Below are positions 193-18,786 of a stretch of DNA of 64,000 nt, one piece after another. Source of the DNA: an uncultured Gammaproteobacteria bacterium (GTDB taxonomy: Bacteria > Patescibacteriota > Patescibacteriia > Buchananbacterales > UBA6539); the NCBI GenBank assembly GCA_964540635.1, contig CAZINP010000001.1:93364-157363 (forward strand). The letters run 5' to 3'. A model generated the notes under the pieces. That model saw nothing but the letters and a program-made list of their open reading frames with translations. It ran no database searches and was not told the origin of the DNA. The position numbers and the translations under genes were made by a program. Each line of letters opens with the position of its first letter. Position 1 is the stretch's first letter.

Positions 193-237
193 TTATTTAT
201 TGTATACTAAAAAAAGATAATTCATGGCAAAAACAAA

Positions 238-1190: not shown

Positions 1191-1246
1191 AACACAAGCA
1201 ATCAACATAGCGCCCCGAAAAACGGGGTGCTTTTAATTAAACCAAT

Positions 1247-1612: not shown

Positions 1613-1621
1613 AAACCGTTC

Positions 1622-1650
1622 TTGACAAAAACATTAAAATAATCTATACT
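1622..1650 (+). promoter_or_regulatory. Sigma70-like promoter: TTGACA, 17-nt spacer, TATACT
   Basis: Consensus hexamers with 17-nt spacing. Confidence 0.55.
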
Positions 1651-1674
1651 ATTTTTAATAGAGATCAGTTGAAA

Positions 1675-1702
1675 CGGTAGCCAGTGGCTACCGAATTTTT
1701 TT
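1675..1702 (+). terminator. Intrinsic-terminator-like hairpin (cggtagcc/ggctaccg followed by a T7 run) in the nusA leader
   Basis: An 8-bp GC-rich stem followed by aattttttt, lying about 25 nt downstream of the promoter and 40 nt upstream of nusA. Confidence 0.5.
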
Positions 1703-1741
1703 GCCAAATTATTAATTATAAATAAATTAACTTAAAAAAAT

Positions 1742-2995: not shown

Positions 2996-3033
2996 AACAG
3001 TATTAATTAATTTGTTTATCCCAATTATTGCTT

Positions 3034-4320
3034 ATGAAAATTGAAGTAAAATCCCTGCCCCGAGCTCAAGCTGAAATCGTGGTGGAACTAAGCCTAGAAG
3101 AATATCAACCTCACTTAGAACAAGCGGCAATTAGAATTTCCGAGCAAATTAAAATTCCCGGCTTTCGCCCGGGTAAAGCCGGTTTGGATATTGTCAAAGC
3201 CAAAGTCGGCGAAAAGGAAATCTGGACCGAAGCTTTTGAAGGCGCGGTCAAAAAAACCTTGTTTGCCGCTTTGCTAGAGAAAAAAATCGATTCAGTCGGC
3301 CAGCCGGAAATTGACATAGTCAAATTGGAACCGGGCCAGCCCGTTATCTACAAAGCCATTGTTAATTTGTTTCCGGAAATAAAACTGGCTGACTACAAAA
3401 ATTTAAGCGTCACCAAAAAACCGATTGAAATCAAAGAAGAAAAGGTTGAGCAAACGCTTAAAGACTTGCAAAAAATGCGCGCCAAAGAAGTTTTGGTGGA
3501 GCGCCCGGCAAAAAAAGGCGATAAAGCCGAAATTAATTTTGCCGCCTTTATGGACAAGGTGCCAATTGAAAACGGCCAACACCAAAAATACCCGATTGTC
3601 ATTGGCGACGGCCAATTCATTCCCGGCTTTGAAGATAATTTAGTCGGCATGAAAAAAGATGAAGAAAAAACTTTCCCCCTAAAATTTCCGGAAAATTATC
3701 CGCAAAAGAATTTAAGCGGCCGCGAAGTGGAATTCAAAGTTAAAATGCTTGCCGTCTACGAAAGAGAATTGCCGGAAATCAACGACGAATTTGCCGCCGG
3801 TTTTGGCCAGTTTAAAAATTTAGCCGAAGCCAAAGAAAAAATCAGAGATAACTTAAAACACGAAGCCGAACACGAAGCGCATCATCAGCTAGAAGAATCA
3901 ATTATTGATTTGCTGATTGAAAAAAGCGAATTTTCCGATGTGCCGGATTTGCTGGTCAACTCTGAAGCCAAAAAAATGATGGAAGAACTGGAACAAAACG
4001 TAATGATGCAAGGCATGCCGTTTGATCAATATTTGGAAGGGTTGAAAAAGACCAAAGACGAAATGCTTTTGGAATTTGCCCCGCAAGCCTTAAAGCGCGT
4101 CAAAGGCGCTTTGGTTATGCGTCAGGTGGCTACGGCCGAAAACGTTCAAGCAACCGACGAGGAAATCAAGGCTGAAATTGAACGCATGTTAGCCTACTAC
4201 GGCAATGATGCGGAAATGGCCAAGAACTTCCAAACACCCAGCTACAAAGAATATGTTAAAAACATTCTGGCTTCCAGAAAAACCATGGCTAAACTGGAAG
4301 AAATAATGGTTAAAGAATAA
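3034..4320 (+). CDS. tig: Trigger factor
   Basis: FRPGKAG ribosome-binding signature and an FKBP-like PPIase segment (PGFEDNLVGMKKDE). Confidence 0.9.
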   Translation: MKIEVKSLPRAQAEIVVELSLEEYQPHLEQAAIRISEQIKIPGFRPGKAGLDIVKAKVGEKEIWTEAFEGAVKKTLFAALLEKKIDSVGQPEIDIVKLEPGQPVIYKAIVNLFPEIKLADYKNLSVTKKPIEIKEEKVEQTLKDLQKMRAKEVLVERPAKKGDKAEINFAAFMDKVPIENGQHQKYPIVIGDGQFIPGFEDNLVGMKKDEEKTFPLKFPENYPQKNLSGREVEFKVKMLAVYERELPEINDEFAAGFGQFKNLAEAKEKIRDNLKHEAEHEAHHQLEESIIDLLIEKSEFSDVPDLLVNSEAKKMMEELEQNVMMQGMPFDQYLEGLKKTKDEMLLEFAPQALKRVKGALVMRQVATAENVQATDEEIKAEIERMLAYYGNDAEMAKNFQTPSYKEYVKNILASRKTMAKLEEIMVKE

Positions 4321-4410
4321 AAAACTCAAATAGCAGACCGCCCCGAGTCTTCGGGGCGGTTTTGTATTAAAAGCGTTATTTTGATAGAATTAAGGCGGGA
4401 TATAATACCA
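4279..4410. repeat. Direct repeat copy 1 (tig 3' end, terminator and downstream sequence)
   Basis: About 92% identical to 7088-7218, including compensatory changes in the terminator loop. Confidence 0.85.
4337..4367 (+). terminator. Intrinsic terminator after tig
   Basis: accgccccga / tcggggcggt stem followed by a T tract. Confidence 0.7.
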
Positions 4411-4479
4411 ATATATTAACAATAATTAGGAATTCAATATAAAAAGTGTGTTGATTTTATTAAATAACTCAATAAAACT

Positions 4480-5127
4480 ATGAAAAAAACTGTTCTAATC
4501 GCTCTGCTTGGTTTTAGTTTAACTTTGATTGGTTGTGTTCAACAAACTCCGGCAGAAAACCAAGACATAAGTCAGCCAACACTAAATGTTAATCAAAGCA
4601 CAAATCAACCGGCTGTAAATCTTAATCAGGGTGCTAACACCAACCAACCAACCGCAAATGTGAATCAAAATGTAAATACTAACACCAATAAACCAGTTGA
4701 TGCTTATGCAGATTGGCGAACTTACACTCACCCGTTCTATGGCTGGAAAATTAAATATCCAAAAGATTGGCAGTTTAAAGAATTTAATCAAAGTATTGCT
4801 TTTGCTCCACAAAATATCTCTTTGGAGCAAGAGTGGACTTCGGGCGCTATTGTATGGATAGTCTACCAAAATCCTGATCAACTAAGCTTGGAAGAATTTT
4901 TTAATGGCACGAATCAACCAAACTACTTCAATGACGCCGCAAATGGAATAGCAAACATTACTGTCGATGGGGTTTTGTCGAAAAAATTTAACGGCGTACC
5001 CGGCATGGTAGCATATACTATTTCTACAATTCCAAAAGGTGCAGTAATTGTTGAGCTTAGGGATAATGGAGAAAAACATAAAACTGATGGTATTTATGAT
5101 ATGATGCTTCAAAGTATAGATTTCTAA
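4480..5127 (+). CDS. Lipoprotein with an N/Q-rich low-complexity region
   Basis: Signal peptide and lipobox LTLIGC, followed by NQ-rich repeats (NVNQSTNQPAVNLNQGANTNQP...). Confidence 0.6.
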   Translation: MKKTVLIALLGFSLTLIGCVQQTPAENQDISQPTLNVNQSTNQPAVNLNQGANTNQPTANVNQNVNTNTNKPVDAYADWRTYTHPFYGWKIKYPKDWQFKEFNQSIAFAPQNISLEQEWTSGAIVWIVYQNPDQLSLEEFFNGTNQPNYFNDAANGIANITVDGVLSKKFNGVPGMVAYTISTIPKGAVIVELRDNGEKHKTDGIYDMMLQSIDF

Positions 5128-5305
5128 GTAATAAAAATAAATACAACGGCATGTAACGCGGTTTTGGCTAAAACAGGCAAAGACCGAATCACTAAAACCC
5201 GACGCTATGTGTAATACATTTTGGAACACTAGGAATACGAATTTACTCTTTTCAGTCCATAAATTAAAGCGATTAGAACTTTCAATAAACTCTAATTAAA
5301 AAACT

Positions 5306-7054
5306 ATGGCATATGAAAAAATAAGGCCAAAATTTGGCAAAAAATTATTAGGACTAACTTTATTTGTATTGGTACTAATTGGTATGGGGGGAGGAACTGT
5401 CTATGCGTCAACCAGCGCTTTACCGGGCGATCTACTTTATCCAATAAAAGTAAACTTTACCGAGGAATTGGAGGCAGCCACTAAACTATCCGATCAAGCA
5501 AAAGCCGAATGGGCAATTGAAAGAATCAATAGAAGGCTGAACGAAATAGATCAGATACTTTTAGTATTGGATGATGTTGACCCAAAAATCATTCAATCAA
5601 TTCAGACAAATGTGGAAAAAAGCGGTTCAAACGCCATAATAGCCGCCCAATCCTTAGACTCTGAATCTGTTTCAAAGATTTTATCCAAATTGCAAACAGC
5701 AACCGAATCATACAGTACCACCTTAGGTTCTATCCCCGAAAATACAACTGACGAAGAAATTGGAACTGCCTTAAACACAATTCTTGAAAATGTCCAGGAC
5801 GTAGAAAAAGAAACGCAAAAAATCGCTTTAAGTTTTTTCGTGGGACAAAATTTTTTTCCGGATGACAAAAACACACAACCTAAAAATAATCAAAATATTG
5901 GGAAAATAAATATTATTAGTCCCAAAATCGGAACCCAATTAGTTTCCGGGGTAGCCACAACCATTGCTTGGGAGCCTGTAGAAAAGGCCAGATCATACGA
6001 AGTGACTGTTACTCATCCGGGAGGTGAAGTAATCGGCCTCATTTTTGGTCAGATTCGCAGAACATCGGATGCTTCATATCAAATGGAAACGAGCATTCTC
6101 TGGCCCGCTGACTATTATCACGGACCTGCGCCGGAACTTAAAATAAATACTCTTGCGCCAGGTTACTATAAAATCAAAATAAGGGCCGAGGATTTTGATG
6201 GGAATGTATATATTGGAGAGTCAGAAAACTTTTCCATTGTAGCGCCCGAAAGCGACCGAGGAATACTGGCCGTGGAAATAATAAATCAAAAAGATAACCC
6301 AATCAATGAAAGCAAAGTCAAAATTGAATCGCAGTCAAATCAACAAAATTACGAGGCGACCGCCGATTCGAATGGCTTAGCTGTCATCAATCATATGCAA
6401 CCGGGCATATATAATGTTGAAGTGATTCCACCGAACTCATATTACAGCGCCAGATTCTCAGTTTATATTCAAGCGGGAAAAACCGCCCATCGAATTGTTC
6501 GCCTGGGCAGTAAAACCGAACCATTATCACAAGAATATGAAAATAAAGATGATTATGTTTCACCCACGATAAAAGTAAACGTGGAGGACGTATTGCCAAG
6601 CTCTATCTCGGCTAAAGAAAACTCCGGAAAATCCATCCTATTTGCACGCGCAAGTTTGACGCCGGATGATTCTATTGCATTTAATCGATTAAAACTTGGT
6701 TGTGCCGGCGACAGTCGCGCCTTCAGCGGTGCAACACTTACTACAAGCAACGGCATTTCCAAAAATATCCAAATGCGCCCAACATACGGCGGATTTGAAT
6801 TGGAAGTTGCCGTAAAAGATATCGATTTCAGTATTTTAAAAGATGAAACAACTACGATTTCGCTTTTCTTGAATGTTCGTGACTTAGACCAAGCCATTGC
6901 ATCAGGCGCACAATATCCAAAAAAAATCTCATGCGGTTTACAAGAGATTACTTTTGTAAGTCAGCGAACAGGTCGTCCAATATCACAAAAATATTTTGAC
7001 ATTAATGTAATTACAGCAATACGGGCACTAAAAACTACTCTGACAAAAGAATAA
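5306..7054 (+). CDS. N-terminally membrane-anchored secreted protein, hypothetical
   Basis: Single N-terminal TM helix, then a PGDLLYPIK motif region. Long ORF with uniform coding bias. Confidence 0.55.
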   Translation: MAYEKIRPKFGKKLLGLTLFVLVLIGMGGGTVYASTSALPGDLLYPIKVNFTEELEAATKLSDQAKAEWAIERINRRLNEIDQILLVLDDVDPKIIQSIQTNVEKSGSNAIIAAQSLDSESVSKILSKLQTATESYSTTLGSIPENTTDEEIGTALNTILENVQDVEKETQKIALSFFVGQNFFPDDKNTQPKNNQNIGKINIISPKIGTQLVSGVATTIAWEPVEKARSYEVTVTHPGGEVIGLIFGQIRRTSDASYQMETSILWPADYYHGPAPELKINTLAPGYYKIKIRAEDFDGNVYIGESENFSIVAPESDRGILAVEIINQKDNPINESKVKIESQSNQQNYEATADSNGLAVINHMQPGIYNVEVIPPNSYYSARFSVYIQAGKTAHRIVRLGSKTEPLSQEYENKDDYVSPTIKVNVEDVLPSSISAKENSGKSILFARASLTPDDSIAFNRLKLGCAGDSRAFSGATLTTSNGISKNIQMRPTYGGFELEVAVKDIDFSILKDETTTISLFLNVRDLDQAIASGAQYPKKISCGLQEITFVSQRTGRPISQKYFDINVITAIRALKTTLTKE

Positions 7055-7087
7055 TTCAACCATAGATTTTAATGATTAGCCTTCCAC

Positions 7088-7218
7088 AAAACCATGGCCA
7101 AAATCGAAGAAATAATGGTTAAAGAATAAAAACCTCAAATAGCAAACCGCCCCGAAGATTCGGGGCGGTTTTGTATTAAAAGCGGTATTTTGATAGAATT
7201 AAGGCGGGATATAATGAT
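7088..7218. repeat. Direct repeat copy 2 (orphan duplicate of the tig 3' end and terminator)
   Basis: Encodes a KTMAKIEEIMVKE* remnant followed by the same hairpin. Confidence 0.85.
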
Positions 7219-7308
7219 ATTATGTGCTCAATAAATTTTAATTATTTTCTCTAAAAATAGGCAAAATAATTGCCTGTTCGCATAAAAGTAGTTAAGTGAA
7301 ATTGAATT

Positions 7309-7743
7309 TTGGTTTATACTTCAAGCCGAGTCTTATTCAATAACAAAAAGCGTATGAAAATTTTTGCACAATTTGTTTCGAGTCTTGTGGGCGGCATATT
7401 GTTGGGCATCGTTGGTTTAGCTATTGGTGCTACAATTGGCGGCAATTTCGGCTTTCCAGAATTTGGAGGTAACGCCGGTTATGAATCTGGCGGTGTATTT
7501 TTTGCAATTGTTGGGATCTCACTTGGTAGCTTGCTCGGAATTATGGCAGTAAAAAAAATGCAAAAAGAGCAACACAAGTATACGGTCGCCTCAATTGCCG
7601 CCACCATTATGATTGTCATCGATGTTCTCTTGTTTGATTACAATATGCCGCCAGTTATTGCACTCACAATACTTTTGATGCCACCAATAGTATTAACAGT
7701 AATAACAAATTGGCAAAAATTTTCCAAAACAAAAAACTCATAA
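7309..7743 (+). CDS. Gly-rich small membrane protein
   Basis: Hydrophobic, glycine-rich helices. Confidence 0.45.
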   Translation: MVYTSSRVLFNNKKRMKIFAQFVSSLVGGILLGIVGLAIGATIGGNFGFPEFGGNAGYESGGVFFAIVGISLGSLLGIMAVKKMQKEQHKYTVASIAATIMIVIDVLLFDYNMPPVIALTILLMPPIVLTVITNWQKFSKTKNS

Positions 7744-7772
7744 CCAGAACCAAAATTCAACATCACTTAACA

Positions 7773-7874
7773 CGGCATAAGCGGCTACACTCCCTTTGGT
7801 CGTTTCGCCCATATTTGGCGCTGGTGTAGCACTCCGTGCTAAAATTGTACCAGCGCCAAACATCGTTTATGCCG
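7773..7874. repeat. Palindromic structured element A (nested stems)
   Basis: Outer stem cggcataa/ttatgccg, inner stem ggcgctggt/accagcgcc, central hairpin tagcac-tcc-gtgcta. Confidence 0.6.
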
Positions 7875-7908
7875 GGACGTTAGTAAAAATACTAGCAATT
7901 TTATAAAC

Positions 7909-9339
7909 ATGAAATTCTCTGAATTATTTAACGTAAAACGGAATCGTAATGATGACTGGTTTGATCCCATATTGGAATATGACACCAAACTTTTCATTGA
8001 TCCTTTTATAATATATAAAAAAGGATCAGGAATTTTTCAAGGTGCACATAAAAAAATTATTAATTTTTTCAATGAATCTTTAAAGGTTGTTGCGAAAGCT
8101 GACACTGACACTAAAAATTTATTTTACAAAAAATCGAAATCAATATTAGTCTTTCCCGAGGTTGAAGAATTATGCTTGGGTTATACAGTCGCAGGAACCA
8201 GTGGCGCCGGCTCAGGTCTAGAATTTGCTGAAATTATGATAGAGGCAATAAAGACTGCGCTAGCTAGGGGGGTTCAAAATATTCAGCACCTTGAAGAATT
8301 AGAAATTCTAAATACTGGTATTGGCGCCGATCGCATAAGCGATATCACAGCAAATATTTTAAAAAAAGAACTGATTGCTTATACTCAAAATATTTGCAAA
8401 AAATACAGCATACCAACAGCGCAAATCAAAATTAGAAATTCTGATTTCGATTTTAATAATCAAAGGTGGCTTTCTGAATCTATTAATCTACCGATTAACC
8501 CCAAAAATTCTAAAGCAATACTACTGGTACCTCAAAATTTTTTAGATGAACTTCCAGAAATCAACTCATCTAATTTCTGGGATTATTTATGCAACTACGA
8601 GAACAAAAGACTGAGAAACGATTTTAATTTTGACATATCGCAAAAAGTTGATAAAAAAACTATCGTGGAAATTGCGAGAAATCATCCCGATCTTCTTAAA
8701 AAGTATATTGATCGTGAAGAAAGCCATGGAAAAGCGACTCCATACAACTTTAAACAAGATTATAAAAATTTGATAAAATGGCACGATCGTGGCCAAATTT
8801 TTGTCAATAATAATCCCATACAATTAAAATCGCCAAATACAAACTCAGAATTTGATGAAGTGATCAAAAAAATTACTAATGCCTACAAAAATTTTGTTGA
8901 AAACCAAGGTGGCAATGAACTTCTTTGGAATGATAATGGTACTAAGCGAAATGAAAGTGCTGCTCAAAGAGCCTTTGCTGGTATAGCCATTCCTTATTGC
9001 CAAATTAATAATATAGACGTATCCAAGGAGGCAAATTTTGGTCGAGGCCCAGTAGATTTTAAATTTTCTACTGGCTACCATGCTAGAAAACTTATCGAAG
9101 TTAAGAAAGCTAGTACTGCCAGTAGATTAATTGAAAAAATTAAAAATCAGCTACCAACCTATCTAAAGGCAGAAGATGTCAAGAAAGGTACTTACTTGAT
9201 AATCAAATACTCAAGAAATGATGAAAAAATAATTGATAAAATAAAAAAAGAGATCAATAATCTGAATAAAAATTCTAATTTTGACATTGATTATCAAGTA
9301 GTTAGTGCAGAAAAATTCCCTAGTGCATCACGATTATAA
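7909..9339 (+). CDS. Hypothetical protein with a C-terminal PD-(D/E)xK-like nuclease motif
   Basis: GRGPVDFKF...KLIEVKK has D...ExK spacing typical of restriction-endonuclease-fold proteins. The N-terminal 350 aa are unrecognised. Confidence 0.45.
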   Translation: MKFSELFNVKRNRNDDWFDPILEYDTKLFIDPFIIYKKGSGIFQGAHKKIINFFNESLKVVAKADTDTKNLFYKKSKSILVFPEVEELCLGYTVAGTSGAGSGLEFAEIMIEAIKTALARGVQNIQHLEELEILNTGIGADRISDITANILKKELIAYTQNICKKYSIPTAQIKIRNSDFDFNNQRWLSESINLPINPKNSKAILLVPQNFLDELPEINSSNFWDYLCNYENKRLRNDFNFDISQKVDKKTIVEIARNHPDLLKKYIDREESHGKATPYNFKQDYKNLIKWHDRGQIFVNNNPIQLKSPNTNSEFDEVIKKITNAYKNFVENQGGNELLWNDNGTKRNESAAQRAFAGIAIPYCQINNIDVSKEANFGRGPVDFKFSTGYHARKLIEVKKASTASRLIEKIKNQLPTYLKAEDVKKGTYLIIKYSRNDEKIIDKIKKEINNLNKNSNFDIDYQVVSAEKFPSASRL

Positions 9340-9363
9340 AAATTGCTAGTACTTCTACTAACA

Positions 9364-9451
9364 CCTGCTATACGAACATTGCTTGTCCCCGTTCGTGATG
9401 GACTCCGTCCAATTTTATCACGACGGTGACGGCGCAACGTCGTATAGCAGG
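9364..9451. repeat. Palindromic structured element B
   Basis: cctgctatacga / tcgtatagcagg 12-bp stem with inner stems ccgttcgtgat / atcacgacgg and gacg-gcgcaa-cgtc. Confidence 0.55.
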
Positions 9452-9481
9452 GTAACGTTGTATGCAATAAAATTAATTTTT

Positions 9482-9970
9482 ATGGAAATAAATTCAAAAA
9501 ATATTTTTAAAGTTTTTACAATTATAATATCAATTGTTGCTTTAGTTTTTTCATTTCTTGCGTGGCAGGTTAATAATAAACAATTTTTGTCTTCAGCAAG
9601 ACCATATGTTATCGCTGAAAATTTTGGTACGCTTACTAACAACTACTCATATATACCTCAACCAAGTGCTCTAGCTATAATTGTTCTTAATGTACCTGCA
9701 AAAATAATACGCGAAGAAGTAATTTATTATTCAGACAAAAATATTGTTTATAATAGCACTAATACAGATGAAGTATTAATACCTGGAAATCAGATGCAAT
9801 ATAAAAGGGAATGCCCAGAAGAGATACTAAATAAGCCAAACTTGACAAGATTTGTAAAAATTGATTATAAATGGTTGTCTGGATCAAATGAAAAATATTT
9901 TTTTGAAGCAAGTTGGAAGTTTAACACACAGGATAAAAGATGGGAATTAGAATACCAAAAAGCAAATTAA
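9482..9970 (+). CDS. Membrane-anchored hypothetical protein
   Basis: Start placed at MEINSKNIFKVF, which precedes a TM helix. The annotated upstream extension overlaps element B. Confidence 0.45.
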   Translation: MEINSKNIFKVFTIIISIVALVFSFLAWQVNNKQFLSSARPYVIAENFGTLTNNYSYIPQPSALAIIVLNVPAKIIREEVIYYSDKNIVYNSTNTDEVLIPGNQMQYKRECPEEILNKPNLTRFVKIDYKWLSGSNEKYFFEASWKFNTQDKRWELEYQKAN

Positions 9971-10026
9971 TTTTACTGCATACAACACGGTTTTAGCGAA
10001 ATTAAAACTTCGCCAAAACCGGGAAC

Positions 10027-11074
10027 GTTAGGGGAAATATGACTTGCTTCCTGAAAAAAAGACCACGCCCCTTGTCGAAGCGTGGTAAGAAACCAGTTTG
10101 GCATTGTTTGGCGGCGAAGGCCGAGAATCAGCTCTTGAATAGCTCCATTGCCACATCGGCGCCGGGAACATGACCTAAGCGAGCCATGAATTCCCAAAGC
10201 AAGAGAGCAACGGCAATGTATGCTACTGCTGAGCCAGCGATTCCTACGCCATTCATAGCCGGATGTTCTGTACGCCTCTTATACTCGACGATGAGTTCGA
10301 GGCTGCCAACAATAAGCAGGATGAAAAACAGAACAAGACCAACTTTGAAGGCAAGAAAACCAGAGGCGATCACCCCGATAGTAAGAAACACCAGACCAAT
10401 GCCGGAATTCACGGAGTAGGCGATGGATTTCATGATTCTGCCGCCATCTAAGGGATTAATCGGCAGAAGGTTGAAAAGATTGACCATTGCCATCCAGCTG
10501 GCTGCAGCGGCGAAAAGCGGATTTTCGGTCAAGACATAGATAAGGCCGGTAAACAGCACCAGGGCAAAGCCCCAGAGCGGCCCCATGATCGCGATAACCA
10601 CTTCCGCCCCTCGTGAAGGAAATTCCGCATCCGCAACAGCGGCGGCACCGAGGAATGGCAAAAAGTAGATACCTTTCGTCTTGATTCCGTATCGCCTCAT
10701 CGCCCAAATGTGCCCACTCTCGTGGATGAACAGCATAACCATGATCATCACAGCAAACTGCCAGCTCAGAAGATAGGCATAGGATGCCATAGAGGTAACC
10801 GCAAGGCCTACCTTACCTACCTTTAATCCCTTAACCACCTTGGCAAGAACCGCTATGATCTTCGGTCCCACTTTGATGATAAGGGCAATCATCCCTGCGC
10901 CAAACTTTCTCATTCTATATTCTCCTTCCAAGGTTCAATATCATGATCCTCTCATGACAGAGGTCTCCACACTGGAAAACACTTTATGTTAGCATAATTA
11001 TTGACATATGTCAACCGCAAAAACCACAACTAACTATTTACATAACTAGTAACGCAAGTCATACTTCCCCTAAC
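10027..11074. mobile_element. High-GC cassette bounded by 21-bp inverted repeats (20/21 match)
   Basis: gttaggggaaatatgacttgc at 10027-10047 against gcaagtcatacttcccctaac at 11054-11074. Interior GC is roughly 52%, against roughly 35-40% in the flanks. Confidence 0.6.
10128..10931 (-). CDS. Site-2-protease family (M50) zinc metalloprotease
   Basis: HESGH (HExxH) within a TM helix plus NLLPINPLDGGR (LDG motif). Own promoter TTGACA-17-TAACAT, whose -35 lies inside the palindrome TTGACATATGTCAA. SD ggaaggag. Own terminator at 10060-10092. Confidence 0.75.
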   Translation of the reverse strand: MEGEYRMRKFGAGMIALIIKVGPKIIAVLAKVVKGLKVGKVGLAVTSMASYAYLLSWQFAVMIMVMLFIHESGHIWAMRRYGIKTKGIYFLPFLGAAAVADAEFPSRGAEVVIAIMGPLWGFALVLFTGLIYVLTENPLFAAAASWMAMVNLFNLLPINPLDGGRIMKSIAYSVNSGIGLVFLTIGVIASGFLAFKVGLVLFFILLIVGSLELIVEYKRRTEHPAMNGVGIAGSAVAYIAVALLLWEFMARLGHVPGADVAMELFKS

Positions 11075-11120
11075 ACTTTTTATCTGGCTCACTCACTAAA
11101 TAAAATTACTTATAAACACT

Positions 11121-11495
11121 ATGGGCAGTTACATCGAAATAAACGACACACTTCAAATTACTAAAAAACAAGGGTTTCCTTCCGAGCTAGATTTTAAAAA
11201 ACATAGAAATCACCCGCTTACTGCGAATAACTTTAAAGGTAAAATTTTTAAATTTAGAAACAAAGATAAAATCAGAATCTACCACGCTCCGCCAGTCAGA
11301 AATTTTCTTGTTCAAAATATCGACAATAAATGGTTATACTGGGGCTTGATCCATATACTTGAAGTCACCCACAATCAAGTTAAAAAAACTACTTCTGGAA
11401 AATTTAAAATTGTTTATATTTACACTCCCGAAGAAATGAAGCAAGCCCATAAACTGATTGATAGAAATAAGAAAACGGATTATTTTAATAATTAA
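11121..11495 (+). CDS. Hypothetical protein
   Basis: ORF only. Confidence 0.35.
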   Translation: MGSYIEINDTLQITKKQGFPSELDFKKHRNHPLTANNFKGKIFKFRNKDKIRIYHAPPVRNFLVQNIDNKWLYWGLIHILEVTHNQVKKTTSGKFKIVYIYTPEEMKQAHKLIDRNKKTDYFNN

Positions 11496-11548
11496 TTTTA
11501 TTCAACCGCGCATCCGAATTAACTACTCCACACATTATTTAAATTTAC

Positions 11549-12184
11549 ATGGCAACACCCATAGTTCACGTCGTTTTGACGGATAAAATATTCAATAAAT
11601 TTTTTATTAACAGAAATAAAAAAGATTTTTTTATTGGCACATCTTTTCCCGACATAAGATACTTAAGAATTATCAAAAGAGAAAAAACGCATTTTGAAAA
11701 TGTCAAAATGAAAGATATTGAAAAAGAAAATGATTTTACGGCCGGATTAAAATTTCATTCTATTTTAGATCAAATCAGAGAAGATTTTATTGTTAAAAAC
11801 AATGCCTATGATTTATTTCCCAACTCAAAACTTTCCACTCTTGCCTTAAAGCTGGCAGAGGATAGGATCTTATACAATAATACTCAAGACTGGCAAGAAT
11901 ATATTGATTATTTAAATGAGGTTTTAGTGGATGAAATTAATTTTGGGCTGAAGGCAGATGATATAAAAAAATGGCACGAATTGCTTCAACAACTGTTTTC
12001 TCATTCACCAAATAGACAATCAATCCAAGATTTTGCCTCTGAAATCTTCTTTTCAAATCATGATATTAACGAGCTTGATAAAATGGCGACTCAACTTAGT
12101 GCCAATAAAAAACTGATTAAAATTATAAAAAATTTGTACGCCAACTTTGAAACTTTAACCCAAAATTATATAAAAAATAATTAA
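11549..12184 (+). CDS. Hypothetical protein
   Basis: ORF only. Confidence 0.35.
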   Translation: MATPIVHVVLTDKIFNKFFINRNKKDFFIGTSFPDIRYLRIIKREKTHFENVKMKDIEKENDFTAGLKFHSILDQIREDFIVKNNAYDLFPNSKLSTLALKLAEDRILYNNTQDWQEYIDYLNEVLVDEINFGLKADDIKKWHELLQQLFSHSPNRQSIQDFASEIFFSNHDINELDKMATQLSANKKLIKIIKNLYANFETLTQNYIKNN

Positions 12185-12197
12185 TAATTTTATTATT

Positions 12198-12494
12198 ATG
12201 AAAAAATCAATCGAATCTATGTCCCAAGAGGGTAAAAAACCTGAATCGTTGAATGTCCCAAGCGAAAAGTTAAGCTTAGGAAGATCGGGAAATTTAAGAG
12301 ATGCAATTGAGCAACTCAAGGGCAAAGAGCCGGGAACATACATATCATATGTATCAGAAAAGTTTAATATTCAAGGTGAAGTAGAACAAGCATGCGCTGA
12401 GCAAGGATTAGAAAATATTACCGTCGAGAATCTTCCTTACTGGGGCGGGGAACGGATGTACAGAATAACGGTTCAAAAATCAGAGAAAGAATAA
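12198..12494 (+). CDS. Hypothetical protein
   Basis: ORF only. Confidence 0.3.
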   Translation: MKKSIESMSQEGKKPESLNVPSEKLSLGRSGNLRDAIEQLKGKEPGTYISYVSEKFNIQGEVEQACAEQGLENITVENLPYWGGERMYRITVQKSEKE

Positions 12495-12541
12495 CCAATA
12501 ATTATTCGGACAAAACAAAAAAATAATAAACTCAAAAAATT

Positions 12542-13237
12542 ATGAGAAAATTATTAATTTTGACAATTGCAATTTTAAGCGTTGCGACTGTTGGATGTTC
12601 TAATATAAATTATTCAAAAAAGAACGTTATAAAAACAGGCGGTGAGGAATACGTTGTTGACTCAAGCGATCTTTACAACGTAGATCCGATTGAAACAAAC
12701 TCAAATCTAGAAAAACTCAACGAAAATGAGCAAAATTGGCTAATCCACATGCGCGAAGAAGAAAAGTTGGCGCGAGACGTATACGAAACCCTTGGCAAAA
12801 AATGGCAAATGAATATTTTTATAAACATTGCCAAATCAGAACAAACACACACCGACTCAATCAAAACACTTCTTGAGCGCTATAATATACAAGACCCGGT
12901 AAAAAATGACGCCATCGGAGAATTTAATCTTGCAGAAATAAAACAACTCTATAATGACTTAATCCAAAAAGGAAATAATAGCCTTGTTGACGCACTTGTG
13001 GTAGGTGCGACAATAGAAGATTTGGATATCTTTGATTTAGATGTTGCCATTAAAGAATCAAGCAAAACAGATATTAATACCGTGTATGCAAACCTGCAAA
13101 AAGGGTCACGAAATCATATGCGTGCGTTTATAAAACAGATAAATAATCAAGGAAGCACTTATTCTCCCTCATATATATCCGAAGAAACATACAACGGCAT
13201 AATATCTTCATCTCAAGAAAAAGGAAGGGTGCAATAG
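12542..13237 (+). CDS. Ferritin-like (DUF2202-type) lipoprotein
   Basis: Lipobox VGCSN. EEEKLARDVYE...SEQTHTD diiron-like ferritin-fold motifs. Confidence 0.55.
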   Translation: MRKLLILTIAILSVATVGCSNINYSKKNVIKTGGEEYVVDSSDLYNVDPIETNSNLEKLNENEQNWLIHMREEEKLARDVYETLGKKWQMNIFINIAKSEQTHTDSIKTLLERYNIQDPVKNDAIGEFNLAEIKQLYNDLIQKGNNSLVDALVVGATIEDLDIFDLDVAIKESSKTDINTVYANLQKGSRNHMRAFIKQINNQGSTYSPSYISEETYNGIISSSQEKGRVQ

Positions 13238-13251
13238 GTTTTAAAAAATAT

Positions 13252-13677
13252 ATGGCTTACTACAATAAAATTGGATTATTGGTTTTAAATGAAGACAAAA
13301 CAAAATTTTTAGTTTGTGAACCAGGATCACTTTACAAAGAAAAAAGCGTAACGCAATATTTAATGCCCGGCGGACAATTTCAAGAAGAAACAATAGAAGA
13401 ATGCTTGAAGGCGGAAATAAAAGAAGAGCTTGATTGCGATGTTGATCTTAACAGCATTGAATTTATTGATGACTATGTTGATGTTGCTGCGTCAAATCCC
13501 AAAAGAGATGTTTTAATTAAATTATACAAGGGCTCTTTGGTCGGCACACCAACCCCGTCCACAGAAATTGGGGCAATCCACTGGCTGAGCAAAGATGATA
13601 TAACAAATGAAAAAGTATCGCCAATAATCAGAAATAAAATAATCCCGGATTTAATCGCCAAAAAAATATTGAGATAA
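13252..13677 (+). CDS. NUDIX hydrolase
   Basis: Nudix box GGQFQEETIEECLKAEIKEELD. Confidence 0.7.
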   Translation: MAYYNKIGLLVLNEDKTKFLVCEPGSLYKEKSVTQYLMPGGQFQEETIEECLKAEIKEELDCDVDLNSIEFIDDYVDVAASNPKRDVLIKLYKGSLVGTPTPSTEIGAIHWLSKDDITNEKVSPIIRNKIIPDLIAKKILR

Positions 13678-13785
13678 AATTAATACTCGCAAGGTTAAAC
13701 CCTTGCCAATATAAACATCAAGTGTTAATCTGAAACCGGCAATTACGCCGAAAAAACGAAAAGCAACTTAATGGAGGATAATCTC

Positions 13786-14037
13786 GTGCCTATTCAAAGT
13801 ATGGATGAGGTCGCCATTCAAGACGGAAAAGGTGGCCGGGCAGTTGTCCGGCCGGGCAACAAAGTGTGGTTGTCGCCGGAGGGAAACAACGAATCCATGC
13901 GCCAGTTTTGTCACGGCCAAGAGCCATACACAATCAAGTGGATTGGCAAATGGCCGTGCGGCGGAGTAAATCTTTATCTAGAGGGGCGAGGCGAGGGAGC
14001 TTCAAGCAGAAACTTTCAGAGCTCCCCGAGAGAATAA
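13786..14037 (+). CDS. Small high-GC hypothetical protein (GTG start)
   Basis: SD ggagg 7 nt before the GTG. GC-rich coding run with its own terminator at 14057-14090. Confidence 0.35.
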   Translation: MPIQSMDEVAIQDGKGGRAVVRPGNKVWLSPEGNNESMRQFCHGQEPYTIKWIGKWPCGGVNLYLEGRGEGASSRNFQSSPRE

Positions 14038-14109
14038 ATCTCTTAAAACGGATGTCACATTGGGAGGCAAAATTTGTCTCCCTATTTTTTAAATATTGAT
14101 TTTTATTTT

Positions 14110-14175
14110 CCTTGTTAACCACTATTGACAATTAGGTTAACCTATGTTAACCTTAATATATAGTACGGTTAACAA
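14110..14175 (+). promoter_or_regulatory. Operator-like array of four GTTAAC(C) half-palindromes around a TTGACA -35
   Basis: GTTAACC at 14114, 14136 and 14146; GTTAAC at 14168. Located directly upstream of the antitoxin gene. Confidence 0.5.
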
Positions 14176-14180
14176 AAAAT

Positions 14181-14456
14181 ATGGAAAAAATCACCAAAAA
14201 CTACATATCCGTAGCTGAATTAGCTAAATTACTTGGCGTTAGCCGAATTGCCGTTTTTAAACGCATTAAAAAAGGCCAAATCCCGGCTGAAAAAATTGGT
14301 CGTGCTTATGCCATTAGCGCCGAGGTGGCCAATGAAATTCTTGCTGACGGAAAAGATCAAGAATTAAGTGCGGAGAAGAAAAAAATAATCCAAGAGGCAG
14401 TCACCAAGGTCGTCAAAGATTACGGTGAAACCTTAAAGTTGTTAGGCAAAGAATAA
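14181..14456 (+). CDS. HTH (excisionase/AlpA-like) DNA-binding antitoxin
   Basis: ISVAELAKLLGVSRIAVFKRIKKGQIP helix-turn-helix. Only a 3-nt gap to the toxin gene. Confidence 0.6.
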   Translation: MEKITKNYISVAELAKLLGVSRIAVFKRIKKGQIPAEKIGRAYAISAEVANEILADGKDQELSAEKKKIIQEAVTKVVKDYGETLKLLGKE

Positions 14457-14459
14457 TTT

Positions 14460-14882
14460 ATGTTTACCCAAAGACTGACAATTTCTGAGGTTAAGGACGT
14501 GGCGCATCGTTTGGCTCAGCAAACCTTGGGTTGGAGCGAACCAATTCCGGACTTTGCCACTCGTTTTGACAACGTCCTGGAGAGTTGTCTTGATCAGCCA
14601 TTCCAAACCTTTGCCAGAAAATCGCTTTATCCGGGATTTATTAAAAAGGCGGCCACGCTTTTTTATCTGATGATTAAAAATCATCCGTTTAAAAACGGCA
14701 ACAAAAGAATTGCCATGACCACTTTGTTTTATTTTTTGTATAAAAATAAAAAATGGCTGAGAGTTGATAATCACGAATTGTACAACTTTGCCAAATGGGT
14801 GGCTGAAAGCAATCCGAAATTAAAAAACGCAACCGTTGATGCGATTGAAATTTTTTTAAAAGAATATTTAACAGAAATATAA
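14460..14882 (+). CDS. doc: Doc (death-on-curing) / Fic-family toxin
   Basis: Doc signature HPFKNGNKR (HxFx[DN]GNKR). Confidence 0.7.
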   Translation: MFTQRLTISEVKDVAHRLAQQTLGWSEPIPDFATRFDNVLESCLDQPFQTFARKSLYPGFIKKAATLFYLMIKNHPFKNGNKRIAMTTLFYFLYKNKKWLRVDNHELYNFAKWVAESNPKLKNATVDAIEIFLKEYLTEI

Positions 14883-14894
14883 ATTATTACAATT

Positions 14895-15338
14895 ATGAAA
14901 TGGTATTTTGCCTCCAGAACTCGTCATCAAAATTCAATTGATAATATTGTTGACTTTCTCAAAACCCAAAACGAAAGCATTGTTTTTGAGTGGTCAAAAC
15001 TGGGCGTGCTCACCCCTTTTAAAGAAAATTTTGAGCAATCTGCGCGTATTGCCGAGCAAATCAGCTCAGCTCTCAAAGAAGCTGAAATTTTTGTTTTAAT
15101 TTCTGATGAAGCGGGAACGGATATGTTTATTGAACTGGGAATTGCCCTGGGCAATTGGCTCCAAAACAAAAAAGTTAAAATATACGCCATTGGAAAATTT
15201 AACGATCGATCGCTAATGCATTTTCATCCGGCCATTAGACAGGTTGAAAAATTAAGTGATGTTTTTAAAATTGAAAATCCTAATTTACTCGGCCAACCCG
15301 GAGCCGAAGTTATTATTAATTTTGACCCTCACGCTTAA
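14895..15338 (+). CDS. Nucleoside 2-deoxyribosyltransferase-like protein
   Basis: DEAGTDMFIELGIALG matches the NDT D-x-G-T-x-x-E-x-G-x-A active-site region. Confidence 0.45.
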   Translation: MKWYFASRTRHQNSIDNIVDFLKTQNESIVFEWSKLGVLTPFKENFEQSARIAEQISSALKEAEIFVLISDEAGTDMFIELGIALGNWLQNKKVKIYAIGKFNDRSLMHFHPAIRQVEKLSDVFKIENPNLLGQPGAEVIINFDPHA

Positions 15339-15392
15339 TCATAAAAAAAGCACGTCCGTTGACGTGCGAGGTGCAATTTTGGAGGGCAAGAC

Positions 15393-15605
15393 TTACTTTC
15401 CCCAGACGACTTTGATTCCAATGGAGACGATGATAAAGGCGGTGGAGAACAGGAGGTTGTAAACATCTAAAACTTCGGCTGTTCCACCGTTGAAATTCTT
15501 AATCATCATTATAAGCCAGTTGAATGTCACCAAAAAAATCCCAACAACAAAAACAAAGCACGACGCAAATTTCATAGCCATTTCCTTTCGCCAATCAATC
15601 CACAT
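15393..15605 (-). CDS. Small hydrophobic protein (uncertain)
   Basis: 70-aa ORF with two hydrophobic helices. Confidence 0.25.
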   Translation of the reverse strand: MWIDWRKEMAMKFASCFVFVVGIFLVTFNWLIMMIKNFNGGTAEVLDVYNLLFSTAFIIVSIGIKVVWGK

Positions 15606-15704
15606 CCATCGGCAATCCTATTATCCAAATAGGATTATTTTATTCAAAGAACGAATTTATTTTATATTTAGACGATCATAAAGTCAAGAAATTTAAAAAA
15701 GGCT

Positions 15705-15866
15705 CCAACCAGCAAGACGGCGGGGAGGAATGGTGGGGGTCTTGCTGGCTGAAGCGAAAGTGGGGGTTGATGGAGGGGAGGAACTAGCCGTCGCATAGGG
15801 AACTTGGCCGGATGGCCATTGCTGTTTTATACGGCAGACGGCCGGGGAAGGGTCATCAACCCCCAC
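15705..15866. ncRNA. GC-rich nested-stem element of unknown family; strand undetermined
   Basis: 10-bp stem ccagcaagac/gtcttgctgg and 13-bp stem gtgggggttgatg/catcaacccccac enclosing inner stems gccgtc/gacggc and tggcc/ggcca. Roughly 60% GC in an AT-rich spacer. Confidence 0.4.
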
Positions 15867-15979
15867 GGGAAAACACAAAGAGCGTAAATTAATCATACCA
15901 AATTATTCCAATTTGTAAATATGCTTGAAAAATCGGTTTTTTTTGCTATAATAACCTTGTTTTAAACTAATCGTTTTCT

Positions 15980-17539
15980 ATGAAAAATAAATTCCTAGTT
16001 TCAGCAATCTTGCTTACATTAATTTTACCGCAAACAGCGGCCGCCGAATTAATAAAAAGCCAAAATGGTAACACCGTCTATTATTTAGACAATTTTAATA
16101 ATCGCCACCCTTTTCCCAACTTAACCACTTTTCAAAGTTGGTTTGGAAATGATTTTTCAAGCACAAAAATCGTCTCCGAAGAAGCTTTAGCCAAATTGCC
16201 TTTGGGAAAAAATATAACCATTCGTCCGGGTACATTTCTGATAAAAGCCCAAACCGCACCCACGGTTTATGCCGTTGAGCAGGGCGGGGTCATCAGGCCG
16301 ATTTCAAGCGAAATTGCGGCCGAAGAAGTTTTTGGGCAAAACTGGAATAAAAAAATTGTTGATGTGCCCGATGTTTTTTTTGGCAACTACACCCTAGGCA
16401 AAACCATTACCAGCGACAACGATATTCCGGACAATGTTTTATACTATAATACCAACAAGAAAAAATATTATTTTAAATCAATGGGAATTGTGCGACCGTT
16501 TTCTTCTGAAAGCGCTGTTTTGGCCAATCATCTTAAGCTAAGCGATGCTATTGCCAAGCCGTATGACTTTTCCGAAAGAGAAAAACCAATAACCGGGTTG
16601 GATAAAAGCGTTTTTAATCCGGCCGAATCAGCTTATGTTTCAAGAGTTGATTGTGAAAATAAAAAATTAAAAGCCGCCGTTATCGTGGTGGCCGCTCAAG
16701 AAACCAAGGGCGAGGAATTAAGTAAAGTTGAATTGATAAAAAATAAAATCAGCGAAACCTATTCTTGGGCCACCAGCGGACTTTCCGAAATCGATCTGAA
16801 TTATCCCACTTCTGTAATTTATGACAACGGTTATATTTTATCTACAAACGAAGACGGAACAACCGAAATCAAAAGTGAGTTATTAAACACTTTCTATGAG
16901 ACCAACCCGGATGATTTTGATATTATTTTCATTTTTACCAATTTCAAAACCCCGGAAGAAAACACCAACGAAATTGCGCATTACGCCACCATCACCAACC
17001 GTCAAACCGGCACCGGTCGCTATCAAATTGAATCGGCTCACGTTTACGGTTCAGCCGGCAAATTAAAAGGCGCGATTGTTATGGGCAACATCAATAAATA
17101 CGATTTTGCCACTGAAAAAGGCAAAAACCAAGTTTTAGACATAATCTTACATGAAATCGGCCACCAGTGGTTGGCTTATATCAACTACTACGACGGCACC
17201 GAGACGGCAAATTACGGCTTGTTGCGAGACGACAAAATTCACTGGAGCTACTATGCCGGTTTTATCTCTCCCTTGGGCGGTTCCGGTTGGATTGATAATG
17301 GGGACGGCACTTTTACTTCCGCCCTGGCTCAATTGCCCGAAGGATCATTAAGAAAATACAGCACGCTTGATTTATATTTAATGGGCCTTATTCCGGCTCA
17401 AGTTGTTGGCCCCGTTTTTTACGTTCAACCAACTATTCCAAATCAAGTCGGAAATATCATTGACGGCAAAAAAGTTATGGTAAATATTGATCAAATTATC
17501 AGAGGCAACGGGCCAATCCAATGCAATTTAAGTAAATAA
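15980..17539 (+). CDS. Secreted putative zinc metallopeptidase (HExxH)
   Basis: Signal peptide; LHEIGHQWL motif. Promoter TTGAAA...TGcTATAAT upstream. Confidence 0.45.
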   Translation: MKNKFLVSAILLTLILPQTAAAELIKSQNGNTVYYLDNFNNRHPFPNLTTFQSWFGNDFSSTKIVSEEALAKLPLGKNITIRPGTFLIKAQTAPTVYAVEQGGVIRPISSEIAAEEVFGQNWNKKIVDVPDVFFGNYTLGKTITSDNDIPDNVLYYNTNKKKYYFKSMGIVRPFSSESAVLANHLKLSDAIAKPYDFSEREKPITGLDKSVFNPAESAYVSRVDCENKKLKAAVIVVAAQETKGEELSKVELIKNKISETYSWATSGLSEIDLNYPTSVIYDNGYILSTNEDGTTEIKSELLNTFYETNPDDFDIIFIFTNFKTPEENTNEIAHYATITNRQTGTGRYQIESAHVYGSAGKLKGAIVMGNINKYDFATEKGKNQVLDIILHEIGHQWLAYINYYDGTETANYGLLRDDKIHWSYYAGFISPLGGSGWIDNGDGTFTSALAQLPEGSLRKYSTLDLYLMGLIPAQVVGPVFYVQPTIPNQVGNIIDGKKVMVNIDQIIRGNGPIQCNLSK

Positions 17540-17548
17540 TATAAAAAT

Positions 17549-17926: not shown

Positions 17927-18003
17927 CAAAAAGGTTTTAAAATGATATAATGAATATATCAAGGTAGAGAAATTGCTACCTTTTTATATTTGTAAAAATC
18001 AAA

Positions 18004-18765: not shown

Positions 18766-18786
18766 GATTTGTGGTAAAATCTAGCT

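Follow-up and report, generated by a model that had tools for sequence, protein, structure and literature searches.

Organization of the locus downstream of tig

The subject of this analysis is a direct repeat at the 3' end of tig, the trigger factor gene, in a window of 64,000 nucleotides from an uncultured bacterium of the GTDB lineage Patescibacteriota (assembly GCA_964540635.1, contig CAZINP010000001.1, positions 93,364 to 157,363). Positions refer to this window unless a contig is named. An intact tig is followed by an island of genes in which the end of tig, its terminator and a promoter-like sequence occur a second time (Table 1). Segment A, between the two copies, holds two genes; segment B, which begins within copy 2, holds four cassettes and a block of low G+C content. 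An earlier note on this DNA described the repeat as flanking a two-gene insertion and explained it by site-specific integration into the 3' end of a gene, or by recombination at a repeated terminator module. On balance, we favor another reading, in which the repeat is the doubled head of an integrase-less array of the integron type lying 3' of tig, joined by recombination and not by an integrase of its own. A cluster of attC sites lacking an integron integrase is known as a CALIN (Cury et al. 2016; IntegronFinder 2.0, doi 10.1101/2022.02.28.482270).

The best named matches of tig were from Candidatus Buchananbacteria (59% identity), and GTDB representative genomes reached 53-55%. The only close relative of the window is L001, a Logan contig (SRR8925758) that is 98-100% identical. 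In two further relatives whose tig is 62% identical, L085 and L086, the gene order is methyltransferase - UPF0102 - NusA - Tig - ~524-aa gene - YkuD - ArgRS, continuing to YidC - RnpA - L34 - DnaA. The 524-aa gene is the orthologue of the window gene at 15980-17539 (59-60% identity). Since tig directly adjoins this gene in both relatives, 4321-15979 (11.7 kb) is a lineage-specific insertion, which lies about 19 kb from dnaA. The insertion is therefore not limited to two genes, as the earlier note had it; all of 4321-15979 is absent from these relatives. Among relatives with 62-76% tig identity, the DNA downstream of tig differs from that of the window.

Table 1. Features of the tig locus and the adjoining island, with window positions.
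Feature	Position	Strand	Remarks
tig (trigger factor, 428 aa), intact	3034..4320	+	Pfam Trigger_N, FKBP_C, Trigger_C; 99% identical to L001 tig
Repeat copy 1	4267..4406	+	tig codons and stop 4267-4320; hairpin 4337-4360, then TTTTG; promoter-like sequence 4381-4406
Flank 1	4407..4479	+	Weak, probably decayed attI-like box AATTCAATATAAAAAGTGT, then GTTGATT (4450-4456); GAAAT of intact sites absent
215-aa lipoprotein gene	4480..5127	+	Weak PsbP_2-like domain; probably an old cassette; identical in L001
Decayed attC-like site	5151..5210	+	R'' ATGTAAC, GC, L'' GGTTTTGGC ... L' CTAAAACC, CGAC, R' GCTATGT
Truncated cassette with 582-aa DUF5667 anti-sigma-like gene (5306-7054)	5204..7054	+	ECF sigma partner and own attC missing
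21-nt filler, 582-aa stop codon to tig fragment	7055..7075	+	Present in both assemblies
Repeat copy 2	7076..7215	+	tig pseudogene fragment 7076-7129; hairpin 7146-7169; promoter-like sequence 7190-7215
Segment B (~5.4 kb), absent from L001	~7117..12507		Most of copy 2, four cassettes, low-G+C block
Flank 2	7216..7297	+	attI-like box GTTCGCATAAAAGTA (7276-7290), first recombination site GTTAAGT (7291-7297); box and layout as in L100, L103, L107
Cassette 1: 129-aa membrane protein gene (7354-7743), attC-like site (7765-7885)	7292..7879	+	z -4.4; R1 E 0.004; start GTTAAGT (7291), R'' ACTTAAC (7765)
Cassette 2: 476-aa DUF8370/DUF8371 gene (7909-9339), attC-like site (9356-9463)	7880..9457	+	z -6.5; R1 136 bits; start GTTAGTA (7879), R'' TACTAAC (9356)
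Cassette 3: ~162-aa membrane protein gene (9482-9970), short attC-like site (9980-10033)	9458..10027	+	z -3.6; 93% match to L098 array site; start GTTGTAT (9457), R'' ATACAAC (9980)
Cassette 4: M50 peptidase gene, minus strand (10128-10931)	10028..11074		Pfam Peptidase_M50; attC cut off after R'' CCCTAAC (11068-11074); start GTTAGGG (10027), R'' at 11068
Low-G+C block (29-31%)	11075..12507	+	Three ORFs of no known family (11121-11495, 11549-12184, 12198-12494)
Distal island	12508..15979	+	DUF2202, NUDIX, HTH_17, Fic and others, with a structured intergenic region; 100% identical in L001
Conserved 519-aa gene, right edge of island	15980..17539	+	Orthologues adjoin tig in L085, L086

The 3' end of tig, its terminator and a promoter-like sequence are duplicated

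A repeat search of the window returned direct repeats at 4279-4434 and 7088-7243, and blastn aligned the two copies with 93.0% identity over 128 nt (E 1e-48); 119 of the 128 bases match over 4279-4406, the span named in the earlier note. Because the tblastn match reaches 17 tig codons (tig LASRKTMAKLEEIMVKE versus copy 2 LAFHKTMAKIEEIMVKE, each followed by a stop codon), we redrew the unit as 4267-4406 and 7076-7215, with 124 of 140 positions identical. The duplication of the tig end and terminator that had been reported was therefore confirmed at greater length. Identity is uneven along the unit: tig codons -17 to -8 match at 20 of 30 positions, the last seven codons and the stop codon at 24 of 24, and the terminator-promoter part at 80 of 86. 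Each copy comprises the last 17 codons of tig, an intrinsic terminator and a promoter-like TTGATA-14 nt-TATAAT, and the similarity breaks off sharply past TATAAT.

The hairpins read ACCGCCCCGA-GTCT-TCGGGGCGGT (4337-4360) in copy 1 and ACCGCCCCGA-AGAT-TCGGGGCGGT (7146-7169) in copy 2. In both, a 10-bp stem with eight G-C pairs and a 4-nt loop is followed by TTTTGTATT. A GC-rich stem-loop, then a T-run, placed after a stop codon, is the pattern of an intrinsic (rho-independent) terminator, and the hairpin is predicted to be one. A comparable hairpin with a T-run lies 3' of tig in the relatives L083, L085 and L086. The stems are identical, as had been claimed; three loop bases differ, and so does one base 5' of the stem. 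As a separate observation, a flip of the loop (4347-4350 GTCT, 7156-7159 AGAT) to ATCT plus one substitution would explain the difference as well as three substitutions.

If the module were a dispersed terminator repeat whose copies are unrelated to any insertion, which the earlier note had named as the finding that would count against it, the generic GC-rich hairpin would be in keeping. However, a 38-nt pattern for the module matched only twice in 64 kb, with 0 matches expected by chance, and a search for exact copies of its 25-nt core among JGI metagenome contigs and viral contigs was negative. Furthermore, L001 carries the module at the same two positions, once in full and once in part, and the unit includes 17 codons of tig. 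We regard a dispersed repeat as scarcely credible. The results support a true duplication of the tig 3' end, the terminator and the downstream promoter.

A known noncoding RNA, such as tmRNA, was also considered as an integration target 3' of tig and was rejected; Rfam returned tRNAs only, and ARAGORN only a tRNA-Ser at 56.7 kb.

The genes between the copies resemble decayed integron cassettes

Segment A contains the two genes that had been described, one for a 215-aa lipoprotein with a LIGC lipobox and N/Q-rich repeats, and one for a 582-aa anchored protein with one N-terminal membrane helix, a DUF5667 domain and a CarboxypepD_reg-like domain. To judge by their surroundings, they look like two decayed integron cassettes, and not like an element with ends of its own. 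First, the lipoprotein gene is followed by a decayed attC-like site (5151-5210) whose R' reads GCTATGT versus GTTATGT, the GTT being mutated to GCT. This site aligns with the attC-like site of cassette 3 (p 0.011) and with attC1 of contig L087, and 3' of it GCTATGTGTAATACATTTT matches GTTATGTGAAATATACTTTT, the start of the L087 sigma cassette. The site was not detected by the covariance model R1 described below, and its fold is not significant. The start of the lipoprotein cassette does not match its own R''.

Second, homologues of the 582-aa protein with 70% and 64% identity are encoded in L087 and L091, each after a gene for a sigma factor of the extracytoplasmic function (ECF) type. In L087, the sigma gene and the homologue form one cassette, bounded by G/TTATGT ... 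ACATAAC as in L091, with about 84 nt of complementarity between start and end. The DNA similarity between the window and L087 ends at 7055, one base past the stop codon of the 582-aa gene. The cassettes that carry these homologues sit away from tig. The filler between this stop codon and the tig fragment (7055-7075) resembled neither tig nor the DNA that flanks the homologous cassettes on the 3' side. We also considered whether the tig fragment serves as the 3' arm of an attC in a hairpin at 7054-7124 (ATTCAAC ... ATGGTTAAAG). This candidate was rejected, as its fold is not significant (z -1.6, 15 of 200 shuffles), AC/GGGAC spacers are absent and the start/end rule fails.

These findings bear on the proposal of site-specific integration, in which a small element, with an attP made up of a tig end, a terminator and a promoter of its own, entered the 3' end of tig, leaving copy 1 as attL and copy 2 as attR, with the integrase lost or acting in trans. 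The direct repeats of the target end do flank the segment (4267-4406, 7076-7215), and tig is intact, the displaced end being a pseudogene. Nevertheless, no integrase, excisionase or other mobility gene was found in 4407-7075; nor, as the earlier note had stated for the integrase, was any found in the window open reading frames (ORFs) tested. The cargo consists of two decayed cassettes instead of an element with its own ends, and the left end of copy 2 is joined through the 21-nt filler straight after a stop codon. The remaining evidence on this proposal comes from L001 and is taken up below.

Copy 2 leads into an attI-like site and a cassette array

Three complete attC-like sites in segment B, those of cassettes 1, 2 and 3, are designated attC(a), attC(b) and attC(c). 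Folded as single-stranded DNA, they form hairpins of the type NNNNAAC-A(C)-stem ... stem-GG(G)(A)AC-GTTNNNN. All three have the imperfect AAC ... GTT palindrome with R and L boxes and a spacer that defines an attC, in the order R''-A(C)-L''...L'-GG(G)(A)AC-R'. In addition, the start 7-mer of every one of the four consecutive window cassettes is the exact reverse complement of its own R'' 7-mer (Table 1), and the complementarity runs on for 21-28 nt past the 7-mers. For a GTTNNNN taken at random, a complement would lie 300-1700 nt downstream with a probability of 0.139 per site, ignoring position and extension. This rule also holds in L087, L100, L102/L103 and L107. An initial permissive attC scan that allowed G-T pairs was uninformative.

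Two features of the cassette ends were observed in passing. The complementarity between start and end, 21-90 nt long (window 7291-11074; L087 643-4472), exceeds the 7-nt R box and has a fixed mismatch about 9-11 nt in. The sequence GAAAT is conserved after GTTNNNN in the window and L087 cassettes.

Cassette 1, in which 22 of 24 nt are complementary between the start and R'', has a homologue in the L103 array. The 476-aa product of cassette 2 matches the PADLOC candidate defense family PDC-M36A (1.8e-34). DUF8370/DUF8371 proteins are widespread, with more than 900 homologues, Bacillus included. A cassette context was considered for the homologue in L093 and rejected; that gene lies beside a type III-like restriction-modification pair (methylase/helicase), with no attC-like sites. 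The M50 peptidase cassette has a G+C content of 49-50%, compared with 29-40% around it, and its gene is the only one of the array to be reversed. These features suggest that it is of foreign origin.

Related arrays carry a tyrosine recombinase at their heads

The 19-nt core of attC(b) was found at 10 metagenome loci, in which the sequence from AAC to GTT is conserved exactly and the 4 nt outside each end vary. The inner helix of this family shows compensatory changes at 4 pairs in 12 cells, with none of 500 shuffles as high. Model R1, a covariance model built from the attC(b) loci, detected arrays of 4-7 sites with a spacing of 0.2-2.5 kb in L098, L100, L102, L103 and L106. In the window, it detected two sites, at 9352-9468 (136 bits) and 7761-7890 (E 0.004). 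Homologues of attC(a) and attC(c) lie within the L103 and L098 arrays. R1 found no sites in 1.22 Mb around the tig of 80 other species, and tig-adjacent arrays as a general feature of Patescibacteria were dismissed, as neither a strict pattern scan nor R1 found one at the 80 tig loci.

A divergent gene for a 292-aa tyrosine recombinase (L103 4309-5187, minus strand) lies about 130 nt upstream of the first site of the L103 array. The protein has the Pfam domains Phage_integrase (3.5e-42) and Phage_int_SAM_4. It scored 227.8 bits with NF040815, 'site-specific tyrosine recombinase/integron integrase', above the cut-off of 220, and 215 bits with TIGR02249, 'integron integrase', below the cut-off of 265. 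Its best PDB matches, XerA (4a8e) and IntI4 (2a3v), are about equally close; the match to IntI4 splits into two stretches, indicating that the IntI-specific insertion is missing. Homologues are encoded at the heads of the L100 (3993-4382) and L107 (10601-11009) arrays, and all three recombinase-headed arrays come from groundwater and sediment metagenome contigs. By tblastn, neither the window nor L001 has a homologue of the L103 recombinase, and no Phage_integrase domain was found in the window ORFs scanned. Array B is therefore an attC-like cluster without an integrase, at most a CALIN; the window lacks an IntI with the extra domain, divergent from and adjoining the array, by which an integron integrase is recognized.

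The heads of these arrays share the layout TATAAT - 43-75 nt - TTCnnATAnAA box - GTT, both beside the recombinases and after copy 2. They read ...TTATAAT-66 nt-ATTCGCATAGAAACCA/GTTGTCC in L103, ...GTTCGTATAAAAGGA/GTTAGCT in L100 and ...CTTCAGATAGAAACTA/GTTAGGT in L107, and the first cassette of each follows the start/end rule. The head after window copy 2 reads TATAAT-75 nt-...GTTCGCATAAAAGTA/GTTAAGT. In L083, whose tig is 76% identical, the order is tig-terminator-...TATAAT-50 nt-GTTCGGATAAAACGATCAC/GTTGTCC, followed by cassette-like units. The head after copy 1, TATAAT-43 nt-AATTCAATATAAAAAGTGT/GTTGATT, is a weaker match without GAAAT, and flank 1 is not significantly similar to the flanks of the other platforms (p 0.08-0.86). 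By its layout, the promoter half of the repeat appears to correspond to the Pc/attI region of integron-like elements, with the tig terminator in the position that intI occupies in L103.

The finding of a head after each copy could also point to a tandem duplication of head and array by unequal crossing-over, followed by cassette turnover and decay. A TTCnnATAAAA-type box and a GTT occur at 43 and 75 nt after the copies, cassette-like units follow both, and gene conversion between the copies is plausible. However, the flanks from TATAAT to GTT are unalignable (p 0.86), whereas the module is 93-99% identical; a tandem duplication would thus need great age together with conversion confined to 110 nt. 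Moreover, head 1 lacks GAAAT, the start of the lipoprotein cassette mismatches its own R'', and the decayed array is proximal and the intact one distal. We consider this origin improbable. Homology of the two flanks to the right of the repeat was likewise rejected as not significant; they have only a 12-16-nt box in common.

Several other observations were made in the related arrays. In L083 (6120-6700), a gene for a 153-aa membrane protein apparently lies inside an attC-like site, with the 5' half GCCCAACACGGGCTAGTCGG and the 3' end CTTAGGCGAAAT, and is flanked by inverted AAAATCAATTTT and AAAATTGATTTT. An IS110-family transposase gene in L087 (10606-11589, minus strand) adjoins an attC-like R' (GGCCGCAC/GTTAGGC, 11775). 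This arrangement recalls the IS1111-attC elements, whose targets are attC sites. Mini-cassettes that are 'empty', being about 45-100 nt long and made up of only a start and an end that obey the complementarity rule, occur at L102 1255-1310 / L103 9068-9125, L083 5356-5404 and L103 5228-5332.

The sister strain L001 lacks segment B and shows mosaic divergence

L001 aligns to window positions 1-7116 and 12508-20537. It keeps segment A, in which the lipoprotein gene is identical and the 582-aa gene near-identical to those of the window, together with the opening 41 nt of the copy-2 tig fragment. The junction (L001 12617-12638) lies in an imperfect similarity of 20-21 nt, GGCCAAAATCGAAGAAATAAT (7096) versus GGACAAAACAAAAAAATAAT (12508), and reads GGCCAAAATCGAAAAAAATAAT in L001. 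Because the truncated piece of copy 2 only makes sense within a full tig end, we read L001 as a deletion derivative. A third, degenerate copy of the tig end at 12508-12536 was considered and rejected, as its matches (16/20-21 and 14/15) are estimated to be at about chance level within 10 kb of A-rich DNA. In our reading, it is the short stretch of similarity at which the L001 deletion took place.

The DNA around the repeat is strain-variable, in that L001 is without about 5.4 kb starting inside copy 2. The presence/absence polymorphism was seen for B and not for A. An empty site lacking both genes of A was looked for and not found; L001, the only close relative, carries both.

The divergence between the window and L001 varies along the sequence. 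It is about 2% over 400-4494, with 13 differences (6.5%) in 4201-4400; no differences occur over 4495-~6800, and seven over 6800-7116. In the distal part, there are none over 12600-18000, about 2.5% over 18000-19400 and none past 19400. Two backbones with a divergence of 2% carry an identical island, and the tig end stands out as a diversity hot spot. This mosaic indicates recent homologous exchange of the island between strains.

The alleles at the tig end are shuffled between the copies. The window tig and the L001 tig differ by five synonymous changes in codons -17 to -8. Compared with the terminator-promoter allele of L001, copy 2 matches at 85 of 86 positions, and window copy 1 at 79 of 86. 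The ~7% difference between the window copies mostly represents alleles joined by recombination and is therefore not a measure of age. At site 4284/7093, the bases are C/C in the window and T/T in L001, a pattern that hints at gene conversion between the copies (rough estimate p ~0.06).

Given these alleles, the case for site-specific integration can be completed. In its favor, the identity block has sharp edges (24/24 and 85/86 in L001-type alleles), and the tig fragment differs from tig partly by synonymous changes, like a functional copy of foreign origin. Against it, synonymous differences of the same kind separate the real tig genes of the two strains, so the changes reflect allelic diversity, and neither an empty site nor a second occurrence was found, with one close relative in the collections. 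The direct repeats of the target end stand; the evidence favors homologous or illegitimate recombination with gene conversion, and we think site-specific integration unlikely.

The L001 contig also bears on whether the duplication is an assembly artifact, that is, a chimeric join of two strains at the module. In favor of an artifact, two or more strains are present in the sample, and typical k-mers are shorter than the repeat. On the other hand, the junction of the 582-aa gene, the filler and the tig fragment is present in two independent assemblies (the NCBI metagenome-assembled genome contig of 240,809 bp and the Logan contig). Copy 2 joins copy-2-specific bases (GCCAAAATCGAA) to GAAATAATGG, a sequence absent from every other known haplotype, and a k-mer overlap could therefore not have yielded it. 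An artifact is very improbable.

Proposed origin of the duplication

We infer that the duplicate formed when two haplotypes were joined. The module would have three functional parts, the tig 3' end, the tig terminator and an outward promoter, and would act as the head of a cassette array. Head 1, on the intact tig, would lead into the two decayed cassettes (lipoprotein; anti-sigma-like 582-aa protein), and head 2, which begins with the 17-codon tig pseudogene fragment, into an attI-like site that is intact and then four cassettes bearing attC-like hairpins. The terminator presumably ends tig transcription, and the promoter would drive the cassettes, which are themselves apparently promoterless. 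An IntI/XerA-like recombinase, encoded at another place in the genome or available within the population, could recombine attI and attC at G/TT. Two island haplotypes with a common module, tig-module-A and tig-module-attI-B, may then have recombined through homologous exchange and a single illegitimate junction, which links the 582-aa stop to tig codon -17 by way of the 21-nt filler. The route could have been homology-facilitated illegitimate recombination or a single crossover of a circularized fragment. Later gene conversion would have kept the copies alike, and a 5.4-kb deletion between short stretches of similarity would then have removed most of head 2, together with its array, from the sister strain.

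This joining of haplotypes is the simplest history because segment A has no mobility genes, its sites are dead, the left end of copy 2 is arbitrary, homologous exchange is evident and the alleles are shuffled. Several points weigh against it. Neither parental haplotype was seen, that is, tig-module-attI-B without A, or A without a following tig fragment, and the species is represented by just two genomes. No clear microhomology is apparent at the junction, and the near-identical block of ~110 nt (L001-type alleles), with sharp edges on both sides, looks like the identity segment of attP and attB. The promoter is a candidate assigned by consensus, with a spacer of 14 nt; head 1 has only a weak attI-like box, and the flank similarities are not significant. 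Finally, the Xer-like enzyme, a putative recombinase of these sites, falls under the curated integron-integrase cut-off (TIGR02249 215 < 265).

Other features of the window

The distal island (12508-15979) had no attC-like sites. A G+C-rich structured element lies at 15702-15866 (plus strand) in the 641-nt spacer upstream of the 519-aa gene, with an RNA fold of -74.6 kcal/mol (z -4.0, 0 of 200 shuffles). The element had no Rfam match, and the spacer (15339-15979) had no similarity to the spacers between tig and the 524-aa gene in L085 and L086. Repeated palindromes containing GTTAAC at 14100-14180, upstream of the HTH_17-Fic gene pair (14181-14882), resemble an operator of the HTH protein. Within a run of small ORFs on the same strand, 53424-54230 (minus strand) encodes a 268-aa protein that has a T4SS_pilin domain (1.1e-10).

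Comparison with known systems

In the searchable literature, integrons are reported in several phyla and in Archaea, and no description for Patescibacteria was found. One aquifer survey applied IntegronFinder to metagenome-assembled genomes, including those of the Candidate Phyla Radiation (CPR), without giving detail. The report on archaeal integrons (Ghaly et al. 2022, doi 10.1101/2022.02.06.479319) makes no mention of Patescibacteria or the CPR.

Groundwater Patescibacteria might, we suggest tentatively, carry a distinct integron-type system, and an integrase-less platform of promoter and attI welded to the tig terminator might be copied and so seed a second array. Such a system could be marked, in an equally speculative view, by a Xer-like integrase without the IntI insertion, an extended attC GTTNNNNGAAAT, 20-90 nt of start/end complementarity and lineage-wide attC families. 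It is conceivable, though doubtful, that the platform, along with part of tig, moves or duplicates, that gene conversion keeps its copies alike and that deletion at short homologies removes it.

A repeat resembling attL and attR need not mark a self-mobile element; at this locus it would be a doubled array head in a recombination hot spot. Integron-type arrays appear to operate in the small, host-dependent Patescibacteria, and some carry candidate phage-defense genes. Related contigs pair such arrays with a Xer-like recombinase and not with canonical IntI. The L103-type recombinase, the attI box GTTCGCATAAAAGTA/GTT and the ~105-nt attC family could serve as a test system for the upkeep and expression of integrase-less arrays.

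The arrays share several features with sedentary chromosomal integrons and CALINs. Short ORFs on the same strand, mostly of no known function, are each accompanied by an imperfect AAC...GTT hairpin. Each cassette start is complementary to its own R'', and a homogeneous attC family spans unrelated cassettes, as do the Vibrio cholerae repeats (VCRs) of Vibrio. A promoter-like sequence and an attI-like site stand at the head, with a divergent tyrosine recombinase there in related contigs, and a candidate defense gene travels as a cassette. Unlike in integrons, the window has no integrase, tig and its terminator take the place of intI, and the head is doubled in tandem. The complementarity in the window and related arrays extends 21-90 nt past the 7-nt R box, GAAAT follows R', and the associated recombinase lacks the IntI-specific insertion and scores under the curated cut-off.

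Archaeal integrons have XerA-like or IntI-like recombinases (Ghaly et al. 2022, doi 10.1101/2022.02.06.479319; NCBIfam NF040815). The L103 recombinase is similar in that it passes NF040815 and is near XerA (4a8e) and IntI4 (2a3v). The host here is bacterial, however; L087 was deposited as 'Patescibacteria group bacterium', and the window tig is nearest to Candidatus Buchananbacteria.

With islands at gene 3' ends (tRNA/tmRNA; integrative and conjugative or mobilizable elements, ICE/IME), the locus has in common a repeat of the target 3' end, an intact gene and a remnant, a reused site and strain-variable DNA. It differs from them in having no integrase or excisionase, no defined ends and no empty site, and in a repeat that carries a promoter and leads into an attI-like site.

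Homology-facilitated illegitimate recombination and the exchange of islands at chromosomal hot spots have both reportedly been described (de Vries and Wackernagel 2002; Oliveira et al. 2017). Replacement usually results, whereas the anchor is duplicated here, and the parental haplotypes were not observed. The locus nonetheless resembles them in one arbitrary filler junction beside long exchanged homologous tracts, in the raised allelic diversity of a flanking core gene and in the 0%/2% mosaic.

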